From a virus (Duplodnaviria > Caudoviricetes), in the IMG/VR virus record IMGVR_UViG_3300030110_002923, positions 1 to 51,464 of that record: a DNA stretch of 51,464 bases; one strand, written 5' to 3'. Below are positions 3,504 to 51,464 of this stretch, in pieces; position 1 is the first letter of the stretch; the number at the start of each line of letters is the position of its first letter. A program made the translations under genes and the position numbers. The notes under the pieces are model-generated. The model worked only from the letters and a program-made list of their open reading frames with translations, was not told where the DNA came from and searched no databases.

Positions 3504-6500
3504 TAAAAACCTACCTTAGGTTGATTATACCTAACACCTTCTTCAATCTTTTTCTTTCTTTCTGTAGAAAACTTTTGTAAATCTCTTAGAGGCATACCAG
3601 CCATTTTTTCTAATAGTCTAGAAGGATTTTCTATTAAACCTTTACCTGGTTGAACTAAATCTCTAACTATTCTGCCAAATGGAAACATTGTATATACTTG
3701 ATAATCACTAAATTTAGTGTAATCATCTTTTGCCCACTCCATTATACCTGCTATAGGAAATCTTGTAATAGGAGGAGTAATCATTTGCAACGGAGCAATA
3801 GCTGTAGGTAATACTCCAAAGAAAGCTCTTTCTCTATCTCTTTCATTTCCAAATAGCCAATCAGCTGTGTCTTGAAACCAGCTTAAAGGCTGTGGCAATG
3901 CATTGTCAAACAAACTATACATAAACATATTGCCTAAAGCCAATACTAATAAATCAATTGTCATAGTTCTTTCAAATTTTTCATATGCTGAAGTACCAGG
4001 TTTAAAACCGTATCTAGCAGCTTCTCTTATGATATCATTACGAAAACGTGTCGAATTCCACGCATATAATTGAAACCTAGACATAACCTTGCCTAGAGCA
4101 GTTCTCGCAAACATAGGCCTTTGTGGAGCTTCATATAAGAATTGCGTAGCTTTTACACCTTTTTTACCCATCTCTATTAAAAACGGATGCTCAGGGTCTG
4201 TTATAGCTCCTCCGAACCTTTCCCAAGCTCTTATATAATGTGCCATAAAAGCATCTCTTCTTAAAGTTCTTTCAGGTATAGACATAAATTTAGAAGCTAC
4301 AGACATCATTCTATCACTTAACTTATACTTTTTACCTAAAGATAATACTTCTTTTCTTTCTATAGGCTCTTTTGAATTAATCTTCGAAGACAATTCTCCT
4401 ATAAAACTCTCAATACTTCTTTTTGTAGTAGCATCTTGACCCAAACCTAATTCGTGAATCATAAACTCTGGAACAACACCTTTTTTAACTACCCAATTTT
4501 CTACATCTTGCAAACTATTAAAATTAGGATTAATTCTTTTTAAATATTTCATATCTCTAGCTTTCATAAACGCACCATGACCTGCTGATTGTATTGTATG
4601 TAAACTACCACCAAATATATTAGTAACAGCCGATTTAGGATGCGCAAGTAAAGAAGCTAACTCAAACTTTGCTTCCATATTTGACCAATGCTTTATATCT
4701 TGAAACGTAAAATCTTTTAATTCTTTAGGCAAATCACTTTCTCTTATACCTAGTTTTTCTCTAACTTTATTAACTCTATCTAATACTGTGCTATCTGCAA
4801 ACCAAGCATATGGAGTACCTTTCAGTTTCATATCAGGGTCGTCATACCATTTCTTAGGAATAACATCTGGTTGTCCCATAGCACCTTGTACGTAAAGTTT
4901 AAAATATTTTTCCCATTTACTAGCTAATTTATTTCCAAATTTCTTTGTCATTCTTTCTTTAGCATCATGAATAGTTTTTCTTGACATAATTTGATTCATT
5001 TGTTTAAAATAAGTAGATGTAAGGTTTCTAACATATGCATTCATTACACTTAAATCTTTAGACCATCCGCCTACATGCCCTTCTCTTTGCATCATGGAGC
5101 CAAAGCTAGTATTCATATCTGTCCATTTAACAGTTTCAGTAGCTTTGCCTCTTTTTTTAGCAATATCTTTTAAACCTTCAGTTATTTCAATTACATCTAC
5201 CTTGTCAAAATCTTGTATATTTTGAAACTCCCACTCTCCTGTAATAGTATTGTGTCTCATTAACAAACTTTGTATTCTAGATTTTTTTTGCTTTTCATTT
5301 AAATTAGGATTATTCCTTATAAAGTCTAAAGTTCTTTTTACGTTTAATTCAGACGTTCTTTTGTCAAAAAACATATGAGGCCAGTAATAAGTATAGTCCA
5401 TAGGCCTTGTAGCTTTAATTTTCCAGCTTTTATACGTTGCTTTTTGTTCAGGAGTTTTAGCCAAATCATACATCATTGAACGCTGTATATTTCTCATTCC
5501 ATCAATACCCAAATTAATAGGTATATCATCTCCTCTTTCAAGAGATTTAGTCATATCTTCTACAAATAATTTCCAATTCATTCTAGGCTGTGTTTTGTTA
5601 GCGTCAAAATATTTTCCAGTCTTATACCTATTAATTGATGTCCCGTCACCAGCCATTAAAGGAAACAATGATTCAAATCTTTGAGCAACTTTATTTTTAA
5701 TACCAGTTAAACTCTTTTCTTTGTTTCCATTTACAATTTCCTGGCCAGTAGCTTGTATTCTTTTATTATTATCATTCAATAAAGTAAACTCTTTGTCCTT
5801 TAATTTAGGCCAATTAAACTCTTTTTCTGTTGCTGCTCTAGATTCATCATAATTAAGCTTGTAATGCTCTTTCATATCAGATTCTAAATTTCTTCTTTTA
5901 TCAATACTTTGTTTCATTCCTAACTCTGCTTGACCTACAGCTATTTGGAATAAAGCATTTCCTTCTTTAAGTTCAGATATATTTACAAATTGATTTTCAA
6001 TATCTTTTGCTAAAACTTCAGCTTTACCAATAGCCAAACTATTTGCTTCGTGTGCTTGGTTCATCAGCATTTCTAAAAAATAAGTAGGTCTTCTAACATA
6101 ACCTTCTTTAATTCTTCCGCTTTTAGTTAGATACCATTGTTTTTGTTTTAACCATTTAATATCATAAGCCATTAACTCTCTATTAACAGTTGTTGGAAAC
6201 ATTCCATAGTATCTTTTCATAATATCTGGAGTAGGATTTTTTCTAAGATTTTGAAACCAAGTCCCAGATTCTGCTTCTCTTAAAAAGTTTCTCACTTGAA
6301 CAAAGTCTTGCTTAGTAAAAGTGTTTAAATCTTTACCCATTCCTTCGGGGTCTACTTCAGCCGAAATACCTCTCATTTGCTCATTTAAATCTGGAATATT
6401 ATTTCCTAATTTATTATTATATCTTTTTAATATAGTGGCTATTTCAGTAATAACAGCTTTGTCCTCTGCATTAACTTCTCCCTTTTTAATGCCAGCATAC

Positions 6501-42815: not shown

Positions 42816-43088
42816 ATGGGAAGAGTTAAAGAAACTGATGATGATGATAGTGTATTTAAAAAAGCTATAGATGAAAGAGCTTTTATAAATATGGAAGAAA
42901 TAGAATGGATGTCTAATTGTTGTTTTGAACCGCCATACAGAGATATACTTGATACTGGCGAATATGACAAAGGATTAGATATTGGTAGAGAATTTGATAC
43001 ACAACCAATCGGTTTATGTAGTAAATGTAAAGAAGGCGCTATATTTTATATGGTAGAGGAGGACAGTGATGAATTTCTCGGAAGATAA
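42816..43088 (+). CDS. Small acidic Zn-binding protein
   Basis: SNCC...GLCSKCKE. Confidence 0.65.
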   Translation: MGRVKETDDDDSVFKKAIDERAFINMEEIEWMSNCCFEPPYRDILDTGEYDKGLDIGREFDTQPIGLCSKCKEGAIFYMVEEDSDEFLGR

Positions 43089-43197
43089 AATAGAATTATA
43101 CATTGAAAACATAATAAAGTGTAGAAAACAGAAAAAAGCGATATTGCAAAATAAAAAGGCTAAGGAGGCCAAAATAAAATGGCAAATGATACAATAA
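43069..43197 (+). CDS. Possible 42-aa basic ORF bridging to the Ubl gene
   Basis: GAGGAGG RBS; overlaps both neighbours. Confidence 0.4.
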   Translation: MNFSEDKIELYIENIIKCRKQKKAILQNKKAKEAKIKWQMIQ

Positions 43198-43391
43198 CAA
43201 TCAACTTGTTACAAAACGGAGAGTTCAGTCCTAGAGATACAGCATCTACAACAGTAGGTGAGTTAAGGAACGAACTAGAAATACCAGCAGATGCAAATGT
43301 GATGGTAGGTGGAACTATCAGGCAGAACGACTTTGTTCTGGAAGATGGTGCGTTAGTTGCTTATGCAAGCAATAATAAAGTTGGTGGATAA
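43179..43391 (+). CDS. Ubiquitin-like (beta-grasp, ThiS/MoaD-like) protein with C-terminal GG
   Basis: 70 aa; TTVGELR...VMVGG...FVLEDGALVAY...KVGG*, double stop TAA TAG, TAAGGAGG RBS. Confidence 0.85.
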   Translation: MANDTITINLLQNGEFSPRDTASTTVGELRNELEIPADANVMVGGTIRQNDFVLEDGALVAYASNNKVGG

Positions 43392-43489
43392 TAGATAATA
43401 ATATAAAGCCCTGTGAGTCTCACGTGAGTATGGAATACGACTACCGAGCATGGGCTTTATACGATAAAATAGATAGCGAAGGAGAATAT

Positions 43490-44956
43490 ATGATAGAAAT
43501 ATATGACGGTAGAACAGAAAGAAAAGTAAATGAAATAGATTTTATTAAGAATTTAAGTCAAGAGCAACTAAACAAAGTAGCTGTTGGCCCTCAAGATAAA
43601 TTATTAGATTTAATTAAATACTTTAATGATGTATTCAGACATCAAGGTATTGAAAGTCAAATAGATGTTACTAATAAATGGTCTTGGAAACGTGGCTCTT
43701 ATGATATTATGAAAAACTATTTAACTAATAAATTAGAATTAAACAAAAAAGCTATGTCAATGTCTAAAATAATAGAAAGAGCTCAACATAATGCTAGTTT
43801 CTTAGGTTATATGCGTAAGAAAACATATCAATTAGAATCAGAAAGACGCAAACTTATAAATATGGGTATTCCTAGAGATGTAGATACTGATAAATTTCAA
43901 AGTATGTGCATAGATATGGCAGAGAAAATAGAAAATGCTTGCAATAATGCTAATAACATTATAGAAAATGTAAACTTAAAGCCATGGATAGGTCTAAATA
44001 ACTGCGATGAAATAATACTTTATCTGGATATTATGCTAACAGGCTTGAATATGAGTATAGTTCAAGATTCAACAGTGATAGAAACTAACAAATTAAAACC
44101 AATTAGAATAATGGTAAATGTTGATTTTAGGAAACTATTAAATAATCAAAGATATGATTTGAATTTTAAAGGCAAATATATAGATGATTATCATATGTTT
44201 CCTTATTTAAATTCAGAAACTTATTATCGTAATTGGGGTAATGTATGCTTAGATAGACATCACGATGATTTTAGAAGAGCATTCAAAAAGTTAGACTTTG
44301 TTAGTATGTCAATGATATTGATACAATGGGCTCAATATTATAATGTTGGACACTCTAATCCATATAGTCAACCATTTCTTACACACTATGGTATGCCTAA
44401 AGACAAAAGTCAATCTTATAAGCAATTGTTTGTAGCTGGTACAGTTCAAAGTGCTTGCCAAACAACTCAGAAAAAGATGACTCAAGATTCTTCTGGAATA
44501 GATAGGCTTGTATCTAGCAAAAAGTTATGTCAAGATATTGAATGTCAATATATAGGTAATTGTGAATTTTACGAAATATATAATCGAAAAATAAATCTAT
44601 ATAATAAACATAGATATTTAGGCGATGCTATATATATGGAACTTGCAAATTATGTGACAAATAATGATTTTGACCAACAAACAATATCAAATATGTTTGA
44701 AACAATAACTGGACAATATATTTCTTATACCACTGATGAAGGTGTACTTTCAAAAGAAGAATATCTAAATAGTTGGTATGATAAGTTTATGATATATTTT
44801 GCAACAACATACGAAAAAAACGCTAATGCTTATTTATATGATTATTTAGTAAATAATGGATTGTTAGAGAAAGCAGAAATAAAAACAGAGAATATAGACA
44901 CAGATAATATAAAACAGCAAATGATGGCTTGGGCAGCATCAGAAGGAGTAAGGTAA
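43490..44956 (+). CDS. Putative prokaryotic E2-like conjugating protein (multidomain)
   Basis: HMFPYL...WGNVCLD (Cys codon 44246-44248) resembles the E2 HPNxxxxGxxCL flap/catalytic Cys, followed by QW..YYN...SNPY. It lies between Ubl and JAB. AAGGAG RBS supports the start at 43490. Confidence 0.6.
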   Translation: MIEIYDGRTERKVNEIDFIKNLSQEQLNKVAVGPQDKLLDLIKYFNDVFRHQGIESQIDVTNKWSWKRGSYDIMKNYLTNKLELNKKAMSMSKIIERAQHNASFLGYMRKKTYQLESERRKLINMGIPRDVDTDKFQSMCIDMAEKIENACNNANNIIENVNLKPWIGLNNCDEIILYLDIMLTGLNMSIVQDSTVIETNKLKPIRIMVNVDFRKLLNNQRYDLNFKGKYIDDYHMFPYLNSETYYRNWGNVCLDRHHDDFRRAFKKLDFVSMSMILIQWAQYYNVGHSNPYSQPFLTHYGMPKDKSQSYKQLFVAGTVQSACQTTQKKMTQDSSGIDRLVSSKKLCQDIECQYIGNCEFYEIYNRKINLYNKHRYLGDAIYMELANYVTNNDFDQQTISNMFETITGQYISYTTDEGVLSKEEYLNSWYDKFMIYFATTYEKNANAYLYDYLVNNGLLEKAEIKTENIDTDNIKQQMMAWAASEGVR

Positions 44957-45894
44957 TGAAGTTAGAAGAAGTGTTTTACATAAAAGAAAAAGACTGGTAT
45001 CAGTTACAAGGTTGGGCTACAATAGCTTATGAAGAAGATAAAAACGAAATATCTGGATTAATGACAGCAGTACCACAAGAAGACGGCAGATTCAAATTAG
45101 GAGATGTAAGGATTCTTAAACAAAAGAACTCTGGTACTAATACTGAATTAGATGCAGATGCTGTTGCTGAATATACTATGAAGTTTGGTATGAAGTATAA
45201 TAATCCAAATATGAAGTTTGTTTGGTGGCATTCACATCATACTATGGGAGCATTCTGGTCAGGAACTGATGAAAATGAGATAGATGAATGGAAGAACAAT
45301 AGTTTTTCTTTGGCTTTAGTTATAAATCTTAAGGAGGAGTATAAATTCAGAGTTAGTGTATGGAATAACAATGGATTGCCAATAGAAGAACATTTTGATA
45401 CCACTCTTACTATTGAAAGACCTCAGCCTAAAGTTAAAATAACAGATGCTATGAAAGTAGAGTATGAAAATCTTTGTTCTAATCTTCATCAAACTGTTGT
45501 TGGAAATGCAAATATATGGGGAGGTCATTGGGGTTATAACAGAATTAACACAAACCCTAGACAGCTAACATTAGGACAAGACAAAGAGTTAGAATATGAA
45601 AAAGCATATGCAAAAGCTTATGAATTATTAGAGTCAATGCAAGATGATTTCATAAACGGAACTCTTAAATTAAAAGAATACAAAAAAGAAATAAAATCTT
45701 TTAATAAAGAATGTTCTAATAGAAAATACCCATTTAAAGCTAAAGTTATAAAAGGTAATAGTACTGCAATAATGAATAAGCTTATGACTTTAATGCCAAA
45801 CGAATTGTTCGAATGGGATGATAATAGGATAAAAGATAAGTATGAAGAACGTGAATTTCAAAGAAACTATGGAGGATATGCAGAATGGCTATAA
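44956..45894 (+). CDS. JAB/MPN+ (JAMM) metallo-isopeptidase
   Basis: NEISGL upstream Glu and WWHSHHTMGAFWSGTD = HxH-x7-SxxD; TAATG coupling gives the start at 44956. Confidence 0.9.
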   Translation: MKLEEVFYIKEKDWYQLQGWATIAYEEDKNEISGLMTAVPQEDGRFKLGDVRILKQKNSGTNTELDADAVAEYTMKFGMKYNNPNMKFVWWHSHHTMGAFWSGTDENEIDEWKNNSFSLALVINLKEEYKFRVSVWNNNGLPIEEHFDTTLTIERPQPKVKITDAMKVEYENLCSNLHQTVVGNANIWGGHWGYNRINTNPRQLTLGQDKELEYEKAYAKAYELLESMQDDFINGTLKLKEYKKEIKSFNKECSNRKYPFKAKVIKGNSTAIMNKLMTLMPNELFEWDDNRIKDKYEEREFQRNYGGYAEWL

Positions 45895-46553
45895 ATATGA
45901 GAAGTAGAGGACTTGTAGATAACTTAAACAAATTCAACTTTCATATATTGGGTTGCGGTGCTATAGGTAGTGCCGCAGCTATCCAATTATGTAGGATGGG
46001 TGCAACTAATTTTGCTTTATATGATAATGACAAAGTAGATACAGCTAACATAGGCGTATCACAGTACACAATGTACGATGTAGATTATCCTAAAGTAGAT
46101 ATGTTACACGGAAAGTTAAAAGATATAAGTATTGATTTAAAAGTTCAATGTGTTGATGAAAAGTTTATCAATTATATACATATGAACAATGATGACATAA
46201 TTATATTAGGTTTTGACAGTATGCAATCTAGAATGGATGCAGTAAAAGCTATAAACAACTGGCAAGGATGTAAACCATATGCTTTAATAGATGGTCGTAT
46301 GGGTGCAGAACATTATCAACAATATGTTCTATTAAGACCTACGTTAAAAGACTATAAAAAGATATGGTATTCTGACGAGAATGGCAGTGAAGAACCTTGC
46401 AATATGAAAGCTACTAGTTATTGTAGTAATATGAGTGGTAGTTTTATAGCAAATGCAGTAAGAAAAATAGTCAAAGAACAACCTTACGAGGATTTTGTCT
46501 CTTTTCATTTTCCTACTATGTCGATAGAAAAAAATAGTTGTATATTTAAATAA
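45885..46553 (+). CDS. E1/ThiF-family Ubl-activating enzyme
   Basis: N-terminal Arg (MRSRGL), ILGCGAIGS, YDNDKVDTANIGVSQY, PKVD, GFDS and DGRMG motifs; candidate catalytic Cys in EEPC (aa 172). Confidence 0.92.
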   Translation: MAINMRSRGLVDNLNKFNFHILGCGAIGSAAAIQLCRMGATNFALYDNDKVDTANIGVSQYTMYDVDYPKVDMLHGKLKDISIDLKVQCVDEKFINYIHMNNDDIIILGFDSMQSRMDAVKAINNWQGCKPYALIDGRMGAEHYQQYVLLRPTLKDYKKIWYSDENGSEEPCNMKATSYCSNMSGSFIANAVRKIVKEQPYEDFVSFHFPTMSIEKNSCIFK

Positions 46554-46632: not shown

Positions 46633-47304
46633 ATGTCACTAAAAAAAGTAAAAAGAAAAGCTATATCAAACGACCCTAAAGTAATGTTATTATATGGAGC
46701 TCCTAAAGTAGGTAAAACTACTATTTTGAGTCAATTAGAAGATTGTTTAATAATTGATACAGAGCAAGGTGCTAATATGATAGAAGGCTATATAGAGTCT
46801 GTAAACAATAGAGAAGATTTGATTACGCTTTTAAGAAAGGCTCAAGAAGGCCACGACTATAAGTATGTAGCAATAGATACTATAGATAAAGTAGCTGAAT
46901 GGGCAGAAGAAGCTGTATGTAGCGAAGAACAAGTATCAGCTGTACAAGACTTAGCATTTGGCAAAGGCTTTGCAATGGTAAGAGAAAAAGTTCTGAATAC
47001 AGTAAAAGCAGTCAAACAAATATTTCCTCATGTAATTATCATCGGACATAGGAAATGGGCGAGAGCCGTGGTAGACAGTAAAGCTATAGTAGAACCAGAA
47101 AGTCTAGATTTAACAGGTAAGTTAAAGAATATGTTAATGGCAGACTGTGATGCTATAGGCTATGTTTATCGAGATGATGAAAAAGGCAAGCTAATGATAT
47201 CATTTAAAGCAAATGAAGCGTTAGAAGCTGGTAGTAGAAGTCCTCATCTGAGAGGCAAAGACATCGAGTTAAAATGGAAAAGTATCTACAAAGGAGATAA
47301 ATAA
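46633..47304 (+). CDS. AAA_24 / Sak4-like P-loop ATPase (recombination)
   Basis: LYGAPKVGKTT, IIDTEQG, IDTIDK, IIGH, CDAIGY. Confidence 0.85.
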   Translation: MSLKKVKRKAISNDPKVMLLYGAPKVGKTTILSQLEDCLIIDTEQGANMIEGYIESVNNREDLITLLRKAQEGHDYKYVAIDTIDKVAEWAEEAVCSEEQVSAVQDLAFGKGFAMVREKVLNTVKAVKQIFPHVIIIGHRKWARAVVDSKAIVEPESLDLTGKLKNMLMADCDAIGYVYRDDEKGKLMISFKANEALEAGSRSPHLRGKDIELKWKSIYKGDK

Positions 47305-47915
47305 TGGCGATATTCAAACCCGAAGTTGCAGAATTTAGCAACGATAACAATAAGTTCTTAGGCATAAATAAATTTGCTATAATGCATTTCGAAAATAAGT
47401 CAGGTATGTTTGATTGGGCTGACCTATACATAGAAGTGGAAGTTAAACAAGAACACAGTGATTACAATAGAAAGTTACAAATAAAAGGCTCATTCGAGAA
47501 AGATTCATCAGGCAATATAACTGGAGGTAGTGTATTAAAAAGACTATATACTTTCTTTGAAGCTATAGGTTGCACTGCTGGAATCAATGTAAAAGGCGAA
47601 TGGGAAGATGCAGAAGGCAATAAAATAGAGGATATATGTGATTATTTATCAACTAGATTTATAGCTAGCTCTAATTCAGATTATGAGCCTACATCATATG
47701 ACTATATTGCTTATTTCTATAAAGAACAACCTAAAAAGCCTGGTGCTAAAGCTTATACTACGGTATGGCCTAAAGTATATAGGTATAGCGAAGACAATCA
47801 AAAGAAATTACAAAGTGATATCGATTGGTTGAAAGGCAAAGGTTATCTTAAAGAGTTAACAGATGAAGTTAAAACTGCTCCAGAAATGAATGGTAATGGT
47901 TTAGCTAATCTATGA
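47304..47915 (+). CDS. Putative ssDNA-binding protein
   Basis: Lies between the Sak4-like ATPase and the primase-helicase; aromatic beta-rich. Called by position only. Confidence 0.45.
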   Translation: MAIFKPEVAEFSNDNNKFLGINKFAIMHFENKSGMFDWADLYIEVEVKQEHSDYNRKLQIKGSFEKDSSGNITGGSVLKRLYTFFEAIGCTAGINVKGEWEDAEGNKIEDICDYLSTRFIASSNSDYEPTSYDYIAYFYKEQPKKPGAKAYTTVWPKVYRYSEDNQKKLQSDIDWLKGKGYLKELTDEVKTAPEMNGNGLANL

Positions 47916-49678
47916 ATTATGTAGAGATAGCTAGAGGCACACCTTTTAATAGAGGTATGATTATTCCTGTAAACAAATTGCATGCATATATGAATCCAAA
48001 TGAGGCTTTATATCGCAGTGTATATCTGTATGATGAATCAGCTGTTGAATATGTAAAAGACAAAGGTAGTTTGAAGAATTACTTTGGTGTTAGATATATT
48101 GACAAGATTCCTGTAGATATAGACAAGCAAGACAGGAGCAATGAAAGAACTTTAGATATCTTGAGAGGTACTATCCTAGAGCTAGAAGAAGCTGACATTA
48201 GCAGTCGGAGCTATCAAGCTTACTTTTCTGGCTCTGGATATCACCTTATTCTTTCTGGGGAGTTGTTTAATTTTAAGTCTGGTACAGATTTACCATTTAT
48301 AGTCAAACAAACTATGAAGAAGTTGTTGCCTGGAATAGATTCTAGTATTTACATGAGAACTGGAATCTATAGGCTTCAACATACGTTAAATCAAAAAACA
48401 GATTTATTTAAAATACCTTTGACAAATGATGAGGTATTAAACAAAGACCCTAAAGAAATCTTTGAGTTAGCTAAAAGTTCTAGATTAGATTTTCAATATC
48501 ATATATTAGAAGCTAATGGAGAGCTAGAAAAAAGAGTAGTAACTGAGGTTCCAGATATTAGAGTATTTAACAAAGTATCAGAACCTAACAAAATAATACC
48601 TTGTGTTCAATCTATGCTTAATAATGGAGCAAGAGAAGGCAGTAGGCATCTTACAGCTATGAGAATCATTAGCCATTTTAAAAGACACGGTATACCTAGT
48701 CATTATGCAAAAGTATCTATGTTGCATTGGAATAACAAAAGTATGCCAGAATCAGCTATTATGGAGATGGTAGAGAATGTTTATAATAGAAATTATAAAT
48801 ATGGTTGTCAAGATACTATTATGCTAGAGCATTGCAAAACACAATGTATACACTTTTCTAGAAAAGATTATTTAGTAGATATTAAATCATCTGATGAAAT
48901 GCAAGGAGAGTTGCAAGAAAGATTAACTACTGATTTTAGTGGTAAAACAATAGATTTGGGAAGAGCATTAGGCTTAGACGTAGAATCTACTATTTATCCA
49001 GGCGAGTTAGTAACAATCTTTGGTCCAACTGGTTCTAACAAGACTACATTTGCACAAAACTTAGCATTAGGCGTAGATTTTGTAAATGATAAAATTGTCA
49101 AAGAATGGCAAATACCTACGTTATTCTTAAGTTTAGAGCTATCTTCTTGGTATATGCACAGAAGACATTTGCAAATAGTTTCTAGCAAAAGTAAAGAAGA
49201 AGTAAACAACAATCATGAAGCTTTATATCAGTCTCATAAAGACGAATTAGAGCATATTATGATACAAACAATATCTCCAACTTTAGATAAGATTTATGAA
49301 AAAGTCAGAGAATTGCAGCCACAATTAGTAATCGTAGATTATATAGATTTAGTAGACACACCTGTTAGTTACAGAGGTGAATACGAAAAAATAAAATATA
49401 TATCTCACGGATTGTCTAATATGGCTGTAAATAATGACTTGATTGTAATACAGATATCTCAAGTAAGTAGAGAATATAGCCGAAACGAAGTGTTAGATTT
49501 ATATGCTGGTAAGGGTAGTGGTGCAATAGAAAATGCATCAAGAAAAGTTATTGGATTAAATGGTCAATCAAAGACTCCTAAAAGAGCTGTGAAACTATTT
49601 AAAAATACTGATGGCGAACTATTTGACACACATGTAGAATGGACACCTAGTTTCAGATTAAGGAGAGTGAATGCGTAA
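47912..49678 (+). CDS. AEP primase(-polymerase) fused to a RecA-type SF4-like helicase
   Basis: PVDID, FSGSGYH, IDSSIY..GIYRL; Cys-rich linker; GPTGSNKTT, FLSLE, IVDYID, ISQVSR, GSGAIE. Confidence 0.88.
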   Translation: MNYVEIARGTPFNRGMIIPVNKLHAYMNPNEALYRSVYLYDESAVEYVKDKGSLKNYFGVRYIDKIPVDIDKQDRSNERTLDILRGTILELEEADISSRSYQAYFSGSGYHLILSGELFNFKSGTDLPFIVKQTMKKLLPGIDSSIYMRTGIYRLQHTLNQKTDLFKIPLTNDEVLNKDPKEIFELAKSSRLDFQYHILEANGELEKRVVTEVPDIRVFNKVSEPNKIIPCVQSMLNNGAREGSRHLTAMRIISHFKRHGIPSHYAKVSMLHWNNKSMPESAIMEMVENVYNRNYKYGCQDTIMLEHCKTQCIHFSRKDYLVDIKSSDEMQGELQERLTTDFSGKTIDLGRALGLDVESTIYPGELVTIFGPTGSNKTTFAQNLALGVDFVNDKIVKEWQIPTLFLSLELSSWYMHRRHLQIVSSKSKEEVNNNHEALYQSHKDELEHIMIQTISPTLDKIYEKVRELQPQLVIVDYIDLVDTPVSYRGEYEKIKYISHGLSNMAVNNDLIVIQISQVSREYSRNEVLDLYAGKGSGAIENASRKVIGLNGQSKTPKRAVKLFKNTDGELFDTHVEWTPSFRLRRVNA

Positions 49679-50657: not shown

Positions 50658-50759
50658 ATGGAAGTATGGAAAATAATTTTAGGAATTTCATTAATTACAG
50701 GAGCTATGACAGTAGCTATTGTAGCATATGAATATTTTAAAGATAACTATAAAGGATAG
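50658..50759 (+). CDS. 33-aa single-TM peptide (not in ORF track)
   Basis: GGAGGA RBS; MEVWKIILGISLITGAMTVAIVAYEYFKDNYKG*. Confidence 0.6.
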   Translation: MEVWKIILGISLITGAMTVAIVAYEYFKDNYKG

Positions 50760-50760
50760 A

Positions 50761-51464
50761 ATGATAAAAAAAGTAAATAGAAAATCTATGATTATTAGAG
50801 ATTCTGGACGTAGTAGTGACTTTATTACACCTAGCTTTGGCTATGGATGTCTGTATAAATGTAACTATTGTTATATGCGTAGACGTGTAAAAAAAGGTGT
50901 TACAATAGCATCAAATGCACACGAAATACTTGACGCTTTGGATAGGCACTTATGGCTATTAAAATGGCCTAAAATACCTAATCAAACGCACGAAAAGTAT
51001 TATACATACGATTTTAGTTGTAATGAAGATTATGTCTTGCACTTAAAGTACCATCAATGGGAGTATTTGTTTGATTATTTCAAAGATAATCCTAAAGCTA
51101 TGGGTACAGCTGCAACAAAATATGTTAATAAAAATATGTTGAGCTATGATGCAAATAGAAAAGTTCGTATAAGGTTTAGTATTATGCCTCAAGAACTATC
51201 AGACAAACTAGAACCTGGAACATCTAAGATTATAGATAGAATAAAAGCAGTAAATAACTTTTACGAAGCGGGTTATGATGTTCATTTAAATTACTCGCCT
51301 ATTATAGTATACGATAACTTTGTAGAAGGTTATACAAAGTTGTTTAAGCTAGTAGACGAAATAGTAGATGACAGTATAAAACAAAAAGTAAAAGCAGAAT
51401 GTATATTTTTGACACACAATAAAGAAATGCATGAGTACAATATTAAAAATGAAATAAAAGGTGA
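50761..51464 (+). CDS. splB: Spore photoproduct lyase-like radical SAM protein, N-terminal part (joins 1-261; ~287 aa in total; absent from ORF track)
   Basis: SSDFITPSFGYGCLYKCNYCYM (CxxxCxxC), YDFSCNED, ATKYVN, VRIRFSIMP, LEPGTSKIIDRI, GYDVHLNYSPII. Confidence 0.85.
   Translation, partial: MIKKVNRKSMIIRDSGRSSDFITPSFGYGCLYKCNYCYMRRRVKKGVTIASNAHEILDALDRHLWLLKWPKIPNQTHEKYYTYDFSCNEDYVLHLKYHQWEYLFDYFKDNPKAMGTAATKYVNKNMLSYDANRKVRIRFSIMPQELSDKLEPGTSKIIDRIKAVNNFYEAGYDVHLNYSPIIVYDNFVEGYTKLFKLVDEIVDDSIKQKVKAECIFLTHNKEMHEYNIKNEIKG
51364..51464. repeat. Terminal direct repeat / circular assembly overlap (copy 2)
   Basis: Matches 1-101 with one mismatch. Confidence 0.95.

Follow-up and report, generated by a model that had tools for sequence, protein, structure and literature searches.

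A conserved phage cassette of Ubl, E2-like, JAB and E1-like genes that probably encodes a ubiquitin-like conjugation cascade

In IMGVR_UViG_3300030110_002923, the record of an uncultured marine phage (51,464 bp; the whole IMG/VR record, classed as linear, with a CheckV completeness estimate of 100%), analysed here in full and referred to below as the window, we have identified four consecutive genes for a ubiquitin-like protein (Ubl), an E2-like protein, a JAB metallopeptidase and an E1-like adenylating enzyme. The cassette is real, conserved and phage-encoded; it resembles the Bil/6d type of operon, falls outside Bil, Cap2/Cap3, PRTRC and the ThiF/MoeB equivalogs, and carries a new family of E2-like proteins. 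On balance we consider it probable that these genes, which lie directly ahead of those for DNA replication and are expressed along with them, constitute a phage-encoded cascade for ubiquitin-like conjugation.

Proteins of the cassette

All four open reading frames (ORFs) were confirmed on the plus strand, in the order Ubl, E2-like, JAB, E1 (Table 1). As a first-pass annotation, made from the sequence alone, had described, they are co-oriented and the last three are coupled: the stop codon of the E2-like gene (TAA, 44954-44956) shares one base with the ATG of the JAB gene (TAATG), and the E1 gene, starting at 45885, overlaps the JAB stop by 10 nt. This coupling speaks for a conjugation cascade. 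The longest ORF of the E2-like gene opens at GTG 43424 and would give 510 aa; since its homologues begin with MIEIYDG, which corresponds to ATG 43490, and since AAGGAG lies 6 nt upstream of that ATG, we assign a protein of 488 aa, with the gene limits that the first-pass annotation had assumed. Likewise, homologues of the JAB protein start with MK or MEL, matching ATG 44956, and the protein is thus 312 aa long and not the 321-aa product of the ORF from TTG 44929.

The Ubl gene ends in the codons GTT GGT GGA TAA, i.e., Val-Gly-Gly-stop. Its AlphaFold model (predicted local distance difference test, pLDDT, 81.6) has the strand order strand-strand-helix-strand-strand-strand of a beta-grasp, and the top Foldseek matches were the small archaeal protein Mth1743 (1.7e-4, template-modelling score 0.68) and the Caldiarchaeum ubiquitin (4.6e-4), followed by SUMO, NEDD8, Dsk2-UBL and ThiS (3cwi). 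The earlier reading of this ORF as a 70-aa beta-grasp protein ending in KVGG is borne out by the gene call and the model, which depicts a modifier of the beta-grasp type with an exposed C-terminal Gly-Gly; no sequence-family match was found in Pfam, PHROG, PADLOC or NCBIfam. The closing residues N-[ND]-K-V-G-G are present in all 21 close tags, 18 of which stop at the second Gly, and the other three continue past it (one by 13 residues, two by Gln-Ala). More distant tags end in NNKTGG-Ser-Lys (loci L031 and L032) or in NNKTGG (a contig from a Nisaea metagenome-assembled genome, MAG). Because Gly-Gly is invariant and occasionally followed by disposable tails, the JAB protein would have a maturation job. 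The window Ubl has a single lysine, K67, three residues from its end, and with one Lys only the formation of Ubl chains is unlikely.

The E1-like protein carries a single domain, Pfam ThiF (residues 11-174; 4.4e-17, 62.5 bits over a cut-off of 28.1), and over its N-terminal 100 residues it matches 32 PADLOC models of CBASS E1-E2 proteins (best 5.3e-15). All 11 sequences compared share the motif GCGAIGS (residues 23-29) as well as D47, D49, D111, R116, C172 and C180. The two cysteines are also kept in the distant loci; by the layout of ThiF and MoeB, both presumably lie in the crossover loop. With its ThiF domain and Gly-rich loop the protein is predicted to be an E1-like adenylating enzyme, and the ThiF/E1 assignment of the first-pass annotation, including GxGxxG and a candidate catalytic Cys, thus holds. 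A profile of 11 phage E1s searched against the PDB matched the unnamed ThiF-type structure 9egb (3.5e-9), MccB (5.6e-9) and PaaA (8.4e-7), along with UBA5, TcdA, Cap2, Uba1, ThiF, MoeB and BubCD.

In the JAB protein the residues of the motif E31...H92-S-H94-x7-S102-xx-D105 are invariant in 14 of 14 sequences, which marks it as a putative JAMM/MPN+ peptidase. Its profile found Rpn11/PSMD14 as the best solved relatives (2.9e-4), in accord with the earlier identification as a JAMM protease; Pfam Prok-JAB was matched below the cut-off (5.9e-4; 20.1 bits, cut-off 25) and the PADLOC JAB model of the CBASS type at 1.4e-4. The catalytic domain occupies the first ~150 aa, and the C-terminal ~160 aa match no known family.

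The E2-like protein deserves special attention. A conserved domain at its N terminus is followed by a UBC-like core (about nt 43892-44410) and then by a helical C-terminal part. In the AlphaFold model, computed for the 510-aa ORF (pLDDT 72.7), residues ~155-305 form a long helix, a beta-meander, a Cys loop and two helices, and UBC/UEV folds were matched over residues 157-329 (510-aa numbering). Ten of the top 14 Foldseek rows were E2 enzymes or Cap2 (E 0.12-0.5), with no match at E <=1e-3 for the whole model. The predicted structure thus has the N-terminal helix, beta-meander, active-site loop and helices of a UBC fold; the first-pass annotation had made its E2 assignment depend on such a fold, and a model that looks UBC-like leaves that assignment standing. 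The motif it had read as HxFPxL...GNVCL is HMFPYL...GNVCLD in full (Table 1), with Cys253 (codon 44246-44248; Cys275 in the numbering of the 510-aa ORF) as the candidate catalytic residue.

A word-index search returned 12 close relatives of the E2-like protein, and an exhaustive profile search extended the family to 309 cluster representatives at E <=1e-3 (167 at 1e-10). Those members whose records were consulted derive from metagenomes, marine ones included, where they lie on contigs no longer than about 59 kb, and they are named 'hypothetical' or not at all; the family is large and wholly unannotated. We aligned 74 diverse members, 13-35% identical to the window protein (alignment A5). The only invariant columns are Cys253 and Pro291, and at least 90% of the members keep a Pro-Tyr 15 residues before Cys253, Trp280 and the cysteines 323, 347, 352 and 358. 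The local pattern, [H/F]-P-Y-[IL]-x(n)-G-x-V-C-[LF]-[DG], strongly recalls the active-site stretch of classical E2s, HPN...Cys-Leu-Asp. The four late cysteines (44456-44563) lie in a region modelled at pLDDT 54-66 and may form a metal site and, possibly, a built-in E3-like element.

Related loci in viruses and other mobile elements

A scan of viral contigs with the E2-like alignment, whose ORFs were then searched with the window proteins, yielded 27 related loci. As far as their DNA reaches, all 27 keep the order Ubl, E2-like, JAB, E1, AAA_24, 203-aa protein, primase-helicase. JAB is present in every one; E1 and AAA_24 are present in 25, the other two ending inside or just after JAB, and the replication genes are syntenic in 25, the other two ending earlier. 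Ubl was found in 20, and the remaining seven stop 0-445 nt upstream of the E2-like gene. The four genes are thus strictly co-inherited, as the first-pass annotation had expected of related phages, and the recurrence of one gene order across loci makes the cassette more than a chance arrangement. In one locus (L011, 4024-4727) the E1 gene is split into two ORFs, which could be due to a frameshift, to faulty assembly or to decay of the copy. Mean column identity, computed on overlapping, non-identical sequence sets, is 83% for E1, 75% for Ubl, 65% for JAB and 52% for the E2-like protein; such fast evolution of the latter would suit a role in target recognition.

More distant loci extend this picture. 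Two of them (L031 and L032), found with P0090, which is 17% identical to the window E2-like protein in A5, carry all four genes along with the replication genes, and a third (L033) keeps E2-like, JAB and E1. Among 185,579 species genomes, one genome each, the E2-like alignment found no relative, and the E1 alignment found four loci. Two of these are phage-like contigs in a Nisaea MAG (L034 included), with the full cassette, replication genes and a 660-aa E2-like protein; the binning was not taken as evidence of the host. A 74-kb contig of a Nitrospirota MAG (L035) encodes a di-Ubl (ThiS 1e-12, SAMP2 2.7e-6; ending in EGG-Ile), a 512-aa protein, JAB, ArdA, E1, a 131-aa ORF without a family match, an integrase and a RuvB-like protein. 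The 512-aa protein aligns with the active-site stretch of the E2-like family (QHPHVS...AVCLG) at an hhalign E of 0.0012 and a probability of 20%. The antirestriction gene ardA (5384-5917; 2.8e-34) stands between JAB and E1, and its insertion beside an integrase and a RuvB-like gene points to a role in establishment or anti-defence on a mobile element. In an Anaerolineales MAG (L036, 1269-10130) we observed two JAB genes, a proteasomal-type AAA ATPase, a 417-aa protein (alignment with the same active-site stretch at E 0.052), E1, a ThiS-like Ubl and an AAA-Kelch protein; this is a tag-plus-unfoldase arrangement, distinct from the phage cassette. The combination of Ubl, a large Cys-bearing UBC-like protein, JAB and a small E1 seems to be a recurrent theme of phages and mobile elements, with fast-diverging middle proteins.

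Searches of phage records with the cassette (blastn), the E2-like protein (tblastn) and JAB (tblastn) gave no match. With E1, tblastn returned 81 phage records, all below 60% identity and mostly crAss-like phages (Bacteroides) and phages of Flavobacterium psychrophilum. In the crAss-like phage cr106_1 and in FpV4, genes for a 420-434-aa protein, a JAB-like protein and ThiF are co-oriented and adjoin primase and uracil-DNA-glycosylase genes; they are annotated as hypothetical, 'metalloprotease domain' or 'thiamine biosynthesis protein'. Their JAB-like proteins gave BLASTP values of 1e-4 and 2e-7 in single comparisons, and that of cr106_1 matches Prok-JAB at 1.1e-6. These modules resemble the window in the succession of a protein without annotation, JAB and ThiF, and differ from it in that identities are below 35% and the upstream protein is not detectably related. 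The 420-434-aa proteins were tried as homologues of the E2-like protein and rejected (no match with the iterated family hidden Markov model, hhalign E 0.33). The two (cr106_1, 434 aa, L002 2964-4265; FpV4, 420 aa, L003 3536-4795) are 26% identical to each other and share GYMHSH...N...C-x-G, which is possibly another divergent E2-like active site. A Gly-Gly-ended Ubl was not found in the modules of either group; a 92-aa protein encoded upstream in cr106_1 bears a weak Ubl likeness (hhalign E 0.057).

Besides two runs from which the record may stem, sequence words of the cassette turn up in runs from several studies of aquatic, partly marine, metagenomes. The Ubl, E2-like and JAB genes are matched at >=95% identity by five short contigs (42937-43424, 43764-43920 and 45133-45296), all from two runs of a single marine metatranscriptome study; this is a weak hint of expression.

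Genome setting

The window has a G+C content of ~30-37%, and the sign of its GC skew changes near 41-42 kb, where two gene arms diverge. The minus-strand arm holds the virion genes and, among them, two giant ORFs that together make up over one third of the genome; neither has a Pfam match at E <=1e-3, and they may encode ejected or virion-associated proteins. The plus-strand arm leads through the cassette to genes assigned by Pfam (AAA_24 5.5e-26, DnaB_C 3.4e-14) and by PHROGs (Sak4-like, primase, helicase). A six-frame search of the record for tyrosine integrases found none, and a lytic phage would fit this result.

Table 1 Features of the window, IMGVR_UViG_3300030110_002923
Feature	Position (nt)	Strand	Basis or remark
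Ubl tag, 70 aa	43179..43391	+	ORF; ends ...SNNKVGG-TAA
E2-like protein, 488 aa	43490..44956	+	Start from homologues and AAGGAG
Putative E2 active-site stretch FPYL...GNVCLD (HMFPYL...GNVCLD)	44198..44254	+	Conserved across the E2-like family
JAMM/MPN+ (JAB) metallopeptidase, 312 aa	44956..45894	+	JAMM motif, homologue starts
E1-like adenylating enzyme, 222 aa	45885..46553	+	Pfam ThiF
Small acidic CC...CxxC protein, 90 aa	42816..43088	+	Directly upstream of Ubl
AAA_24/Sak4-like ATPase, 203-aa protein, primase-DnaB helicase fusion	46633..49678	+	Downstream context, outside the cassette
HNH/endonuclease VII-like gene	Plus arm, after primase-DnaB helicase fusion	+	
Plus arm	From ~42 kb	+	Small ORFs, then four-gene cassette, then replication genes
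Structural arm	~2.5-40.7 kb	-	Terminase, portal and major head protein genes
Giant ORF, 3255 aa	3503-13270	-	Among virion genes
Giant ORF, 2646 aa	16276-24216	-	Among virion genes

The 90-aa protein encoded next to Ubl shows the pattern W-x-S-x-C-C-x-A-P-P ... G-L-C-x-x-C, has homologues upstream of Ubl in nine of the 27 related loci and no family match in Pfam or PHROGs; it could act with the cassette as a zinc-ribbon protein, or else be the product of an early gene that has nothing to do with it. The Ubl and E2-like genes are separated by 98 nt (43392-43489), which contain a short palindrome, GTGAG-T-CTCAC; this palindrome was not flagged by the terminator scan and could control the ratio of tag to enzyme. 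The promoter and terminator scan as a whole gave no excess over shuffled sequence (47 sites vs 39.4 +/- 6.0). A plus-strand ORF open at the end of the record (50728-51462) matches Pfam spore photoproduct lyase (SPL, 6.6e-22), a DNA-repair gene of the radical-SAM type that is unusual for a phage. No DNA polymerase was seen among the ORFs scanned, though the record is rated complete and has a primase-helicase and a Sak4-like ATPase; the enzyme may be among the unmatched ORFs or supplied by the host.

Conjugation, its rivals and known systems

From the identity and conservation of the four proteins we infer the following order of events, with host or phage proteins as targets early in infection. 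The 70-aa tag would be made ready for use, and in relatives with a tail of 2-13 aa the JAMM peptidase would trim it to expose Gly-Gly. The ThiF-type E1 would adenylate the terminal Gly and probably transfer the tag onto its Cys172, from which it would move to Cys253 of the E2-like protein and then to an amine of the target. In place of an E3, the two terminal domains of the E2-like protein, which evolve fast, may select the target amine; the C-terminal one has a possible metal site of four Cys. The JAMM peptidase could also remove the mark. An active cascade is argued for by the invariance of the Ubl Gly-Gly, of Cys172 in E1 and of Cys253 in the E2-like protein, and by the co-inheritance of all four genes.

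A number of observations weigh against this reading. No E2 family was assigned to the E2-like protein by Pfam, PADLOC, NCBIfam or PHROGs; a Pfam scan of the 74 aligned members (E up to 1) found scattered noise and no E2 family, and the family profile found only TPR and coiled-coil noise in the PDB. The sole sequence trace toward E2 is an Atlas lead to Prok-E2_D (rank 22, score 0.85), and judged by sequence profile the protein is not a member of UQ_con or of Prok-E2_A-E. In its motif Tyr replaces the Asn of the classical HPN, His alternates with Phe (the window protein has Phe), and the spacing to Cys is longer than in the HPN type, and variable. In two stretches of the model, residues 266-268, which directly precede the Cys, and residues 312-336, pLDDT is below 50. 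On the side of E1, the protein is a minimal, single ThiF-type domain, it reads NIGVSQ where its best PDB relative, 9egb, has NLNRQ, the Arg of which contacts ATP phosphates in MoeB and ThiF, and its best NCBIfam matches are ThiF equivalogs, i.e., models of sulfur carriers (2.2e-18 and 3.9e-15). Neither a target nor an E3 is among the identified parts, no Ubl was seen in the upstream 1029 nt of L033, a distant locus, and relatives with a fused E2-E1 or a longer E1 were not found, which is weak evidence. The hint of transcription stays weak, since DNA can contaminate RNA libraries.

Those ThiF matches raise the question of a sulfur-carrier system, in which E1 would adenylate the Ubl, a host persulfide would convert it into a thiocarboxylate, and the sulfur would pass to a nucleotide, tRNA, DNA base or cofactor, with the 488-aa protein as a sulfur-accepting or -inserting enzyme instead of an E2. 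Sulfur pathways that contain a JAMM protein exist (CysO-Mec-MoeZ and QbsCDE, besides ThiS-ThiF as the model of a sulfur carrier), and the cutting of Ubl tails by a JAMM peptidase is known in them too. A minimal E1 of ThiF size that lacks a separate catalytic-Cys domain, Mth1743 as the best match of the Ubl model with ThiS also among the matches, and a setting among replication genes, which would suit the modification of nucleic acids, agree with this explanation. We nevertheless regard it as unlikely. The equivalog scores are all far below the cut-offs (in bits against cut-off: PRK08644 66.7/159, thiF_fam2 56.3/152.2, adenyl_thiF 52.2/275, moeB 24.4/376), as are the Cap2-type and PRTRC scores of E1 in NCBIfam. 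Six-frame searches found no rhodanese and no class-V aminotransferase/cysteine desulfurase (Aminotran_5) in the record, with control genomes positive, in line with the absence of sulfur-relay genes noted in the first-pass annotation. It would also be left unexplained why the partner protein has a UBC-like core in which a Cys invariant in the family follows a motif of the HP type; we know of no sulfur-relay role for a UBC-like Cys protein.

The cassette might also serve to counter host defence, the phage peptidase stripping host Bil or Cap2 conjugates and E1, the E2-like protein and Ubl acting as decoys or competitors. The 32 PADLOC Cap2 E1-E2 families matched by E1, the match of JAB to its CBASS counterpart, and the ArdA gene inserted next to an integrase in the Nitrospirota-MAG cassette are consistent with such a function, and host Bil systems are described as tagging phage tail proteins (PMC11601596; 10.1101/2023.09.04.556158). 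Deconjugation, however, needs the peptidase alone, yet all four genes are co-inherited, and we give this explanation a low probability; as it concerns purpose, it can coexist with a conjugation cascade. Chemistry other than conjugation to proteins is, in our judgement, a rather remote prospect, be it nucleotidylation or cyclisation of the MccB and PaaA type, or modification of an amine in lipid, cell wall or nucleic acid. The E1 profile has MccB and PaaA among its nearest solved relatives, E1 is nearer to non-canonical E1s (Cap2, UBA5) than to canonical ones, and the single lysine disfavours Ubl chains. The substrate here, though, is a folded beta-grasp protein with Gly-Gly, rather than a short peptide with Asn or Glu at its end, and a JAMM isopeptidase together with a Cys-bearing UBC-like protein are hallmarks of a thioester relay to amines.

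Among known systems Bil is the nearest. It consists of BilA (Ubl), BilB (E2), BilC (JAB) and BilD (E1), corresponds to what Iyer et al. 2006 (PMC1779556) list as operon type 6d and conjugates its Ubl to proteins (PMC11601596). Bil and the window share four separate proteins (a Ubl with C-terminal Gly, a Cys-bearing E2-like protein, JAB and E1) in one compact operon. However, Bil is a host anti-phage defence, whereas the window cassette consists of phage genes beside replication genes; its E2-like protein, at 488 aa and with extra domains, is unlike the Bil E2, and most of its relatives have His-Pro before the Cys, whereas the 6d E2s lack that His (PMC1779556, Table 1). BilD combines an inactive and an active adenylation domain with a mobile Cys domain (PMC11601596), an architecture that the 222-aa E1 of the window, with one ThiF domain, does not have. 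PADLOC, which may hold no Bil models, gave nothing for Ubl or the E2-like protein, and for JAB and E1 only models of the CBASS type.

In type II CBASS, Cap2 is an E2-E1 fusion acting on the CD-NTase and Cap3 is the JAB protein; in the window the E2-like protein and E1 are separate, a dedicated Ubl is present, and a six-frame search found no SMODS/CD-NTase in the record (control genomes positive). ThiS-ThiF and MoaD-MoeB resemble the cassette in pairing a small beta-grasp Gly-Gly protein with a ThiF-type enzyme of ~220-250 aa; the window differs from such sulfur-carrier pairs by the additional UBC-like protein with its invariant Cys and by scores under the equivalog cut-offs. PRTRC likewise unites a small Ubl with proteins of the ThiF family and of JAB-like type on a mobile element, but the window scores far below its models (PRTRC_ThiF 24.8 vs 144.75 bits, PRTRC_A 15.7 vs 101.8), and ParB and other PRTRC proteins were not seen in the window. 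Phages lambda and T1 encode TAPI, a Ubl with a conserved C-terminal Gly, beside the JAB protein TAPK (JAB-NlpC), as PMC1779556 describes; TAPI/TAPK belong to a tail module without E1 or E2, whereas the window cassette includes both and is situated in the replication arm.

In the available parts of PMC1779556, PMC11601596, 10.1101/2023.09.04.556158, PMC11601603 and PMC8665760 a phage-encoded E1-E2-JAB-Ubl set is absent, TAPI/TAPK being the sole phage case. The full-text literature, with subscription journals largely uncovered so that a description could exist, yielded no account of a phage Ubl-E1-E2-JAB cassette and, under the same coverage, nothing that links crAss-like phages with ThiF, JAB or E1.

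We see a little less than an even chance that marine lytic phages and, by extension, the crAss-like and Flavobacterium phages with JAB-ThiF modules, run an E3-independent Ubl ligase early in infection by means of an E2 family that is restricted to phages and had gone unrecognised. That the E2 of such a ligase carries its own target-recognition domains, and tags proteins for takeover of the host or for blunting its immunity, we propose with comparable reserve. To our knowledge, those prokaryotic Ubl-E1-E2-JAB cascades that have been characterised all serve the host as weapons against phages (Bil, CBASS Cap2/Cap3), the others being uncharacterised bacterial operons. If the proposed cascade is true, prokaryotic viruses would have their first ubiquitin-like conjugation pathway, the mirror image of Bil defence, and a cascade that is conserved and widespread among phages would mean that ubiquitin-like tagging is used on both sides. 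A new family of E2s would be added, all 309 cluster representatives of which are unannotated, in a system that is easily tested, with four small genes, a one-lysine tag and a Val-Gly-Gly remnant that is distinctive. The finding further suggests what the unexplained JAB and ThiF genes may do in the replication modules of gut phages of the crAss-like type and of phages of fish pathogens.

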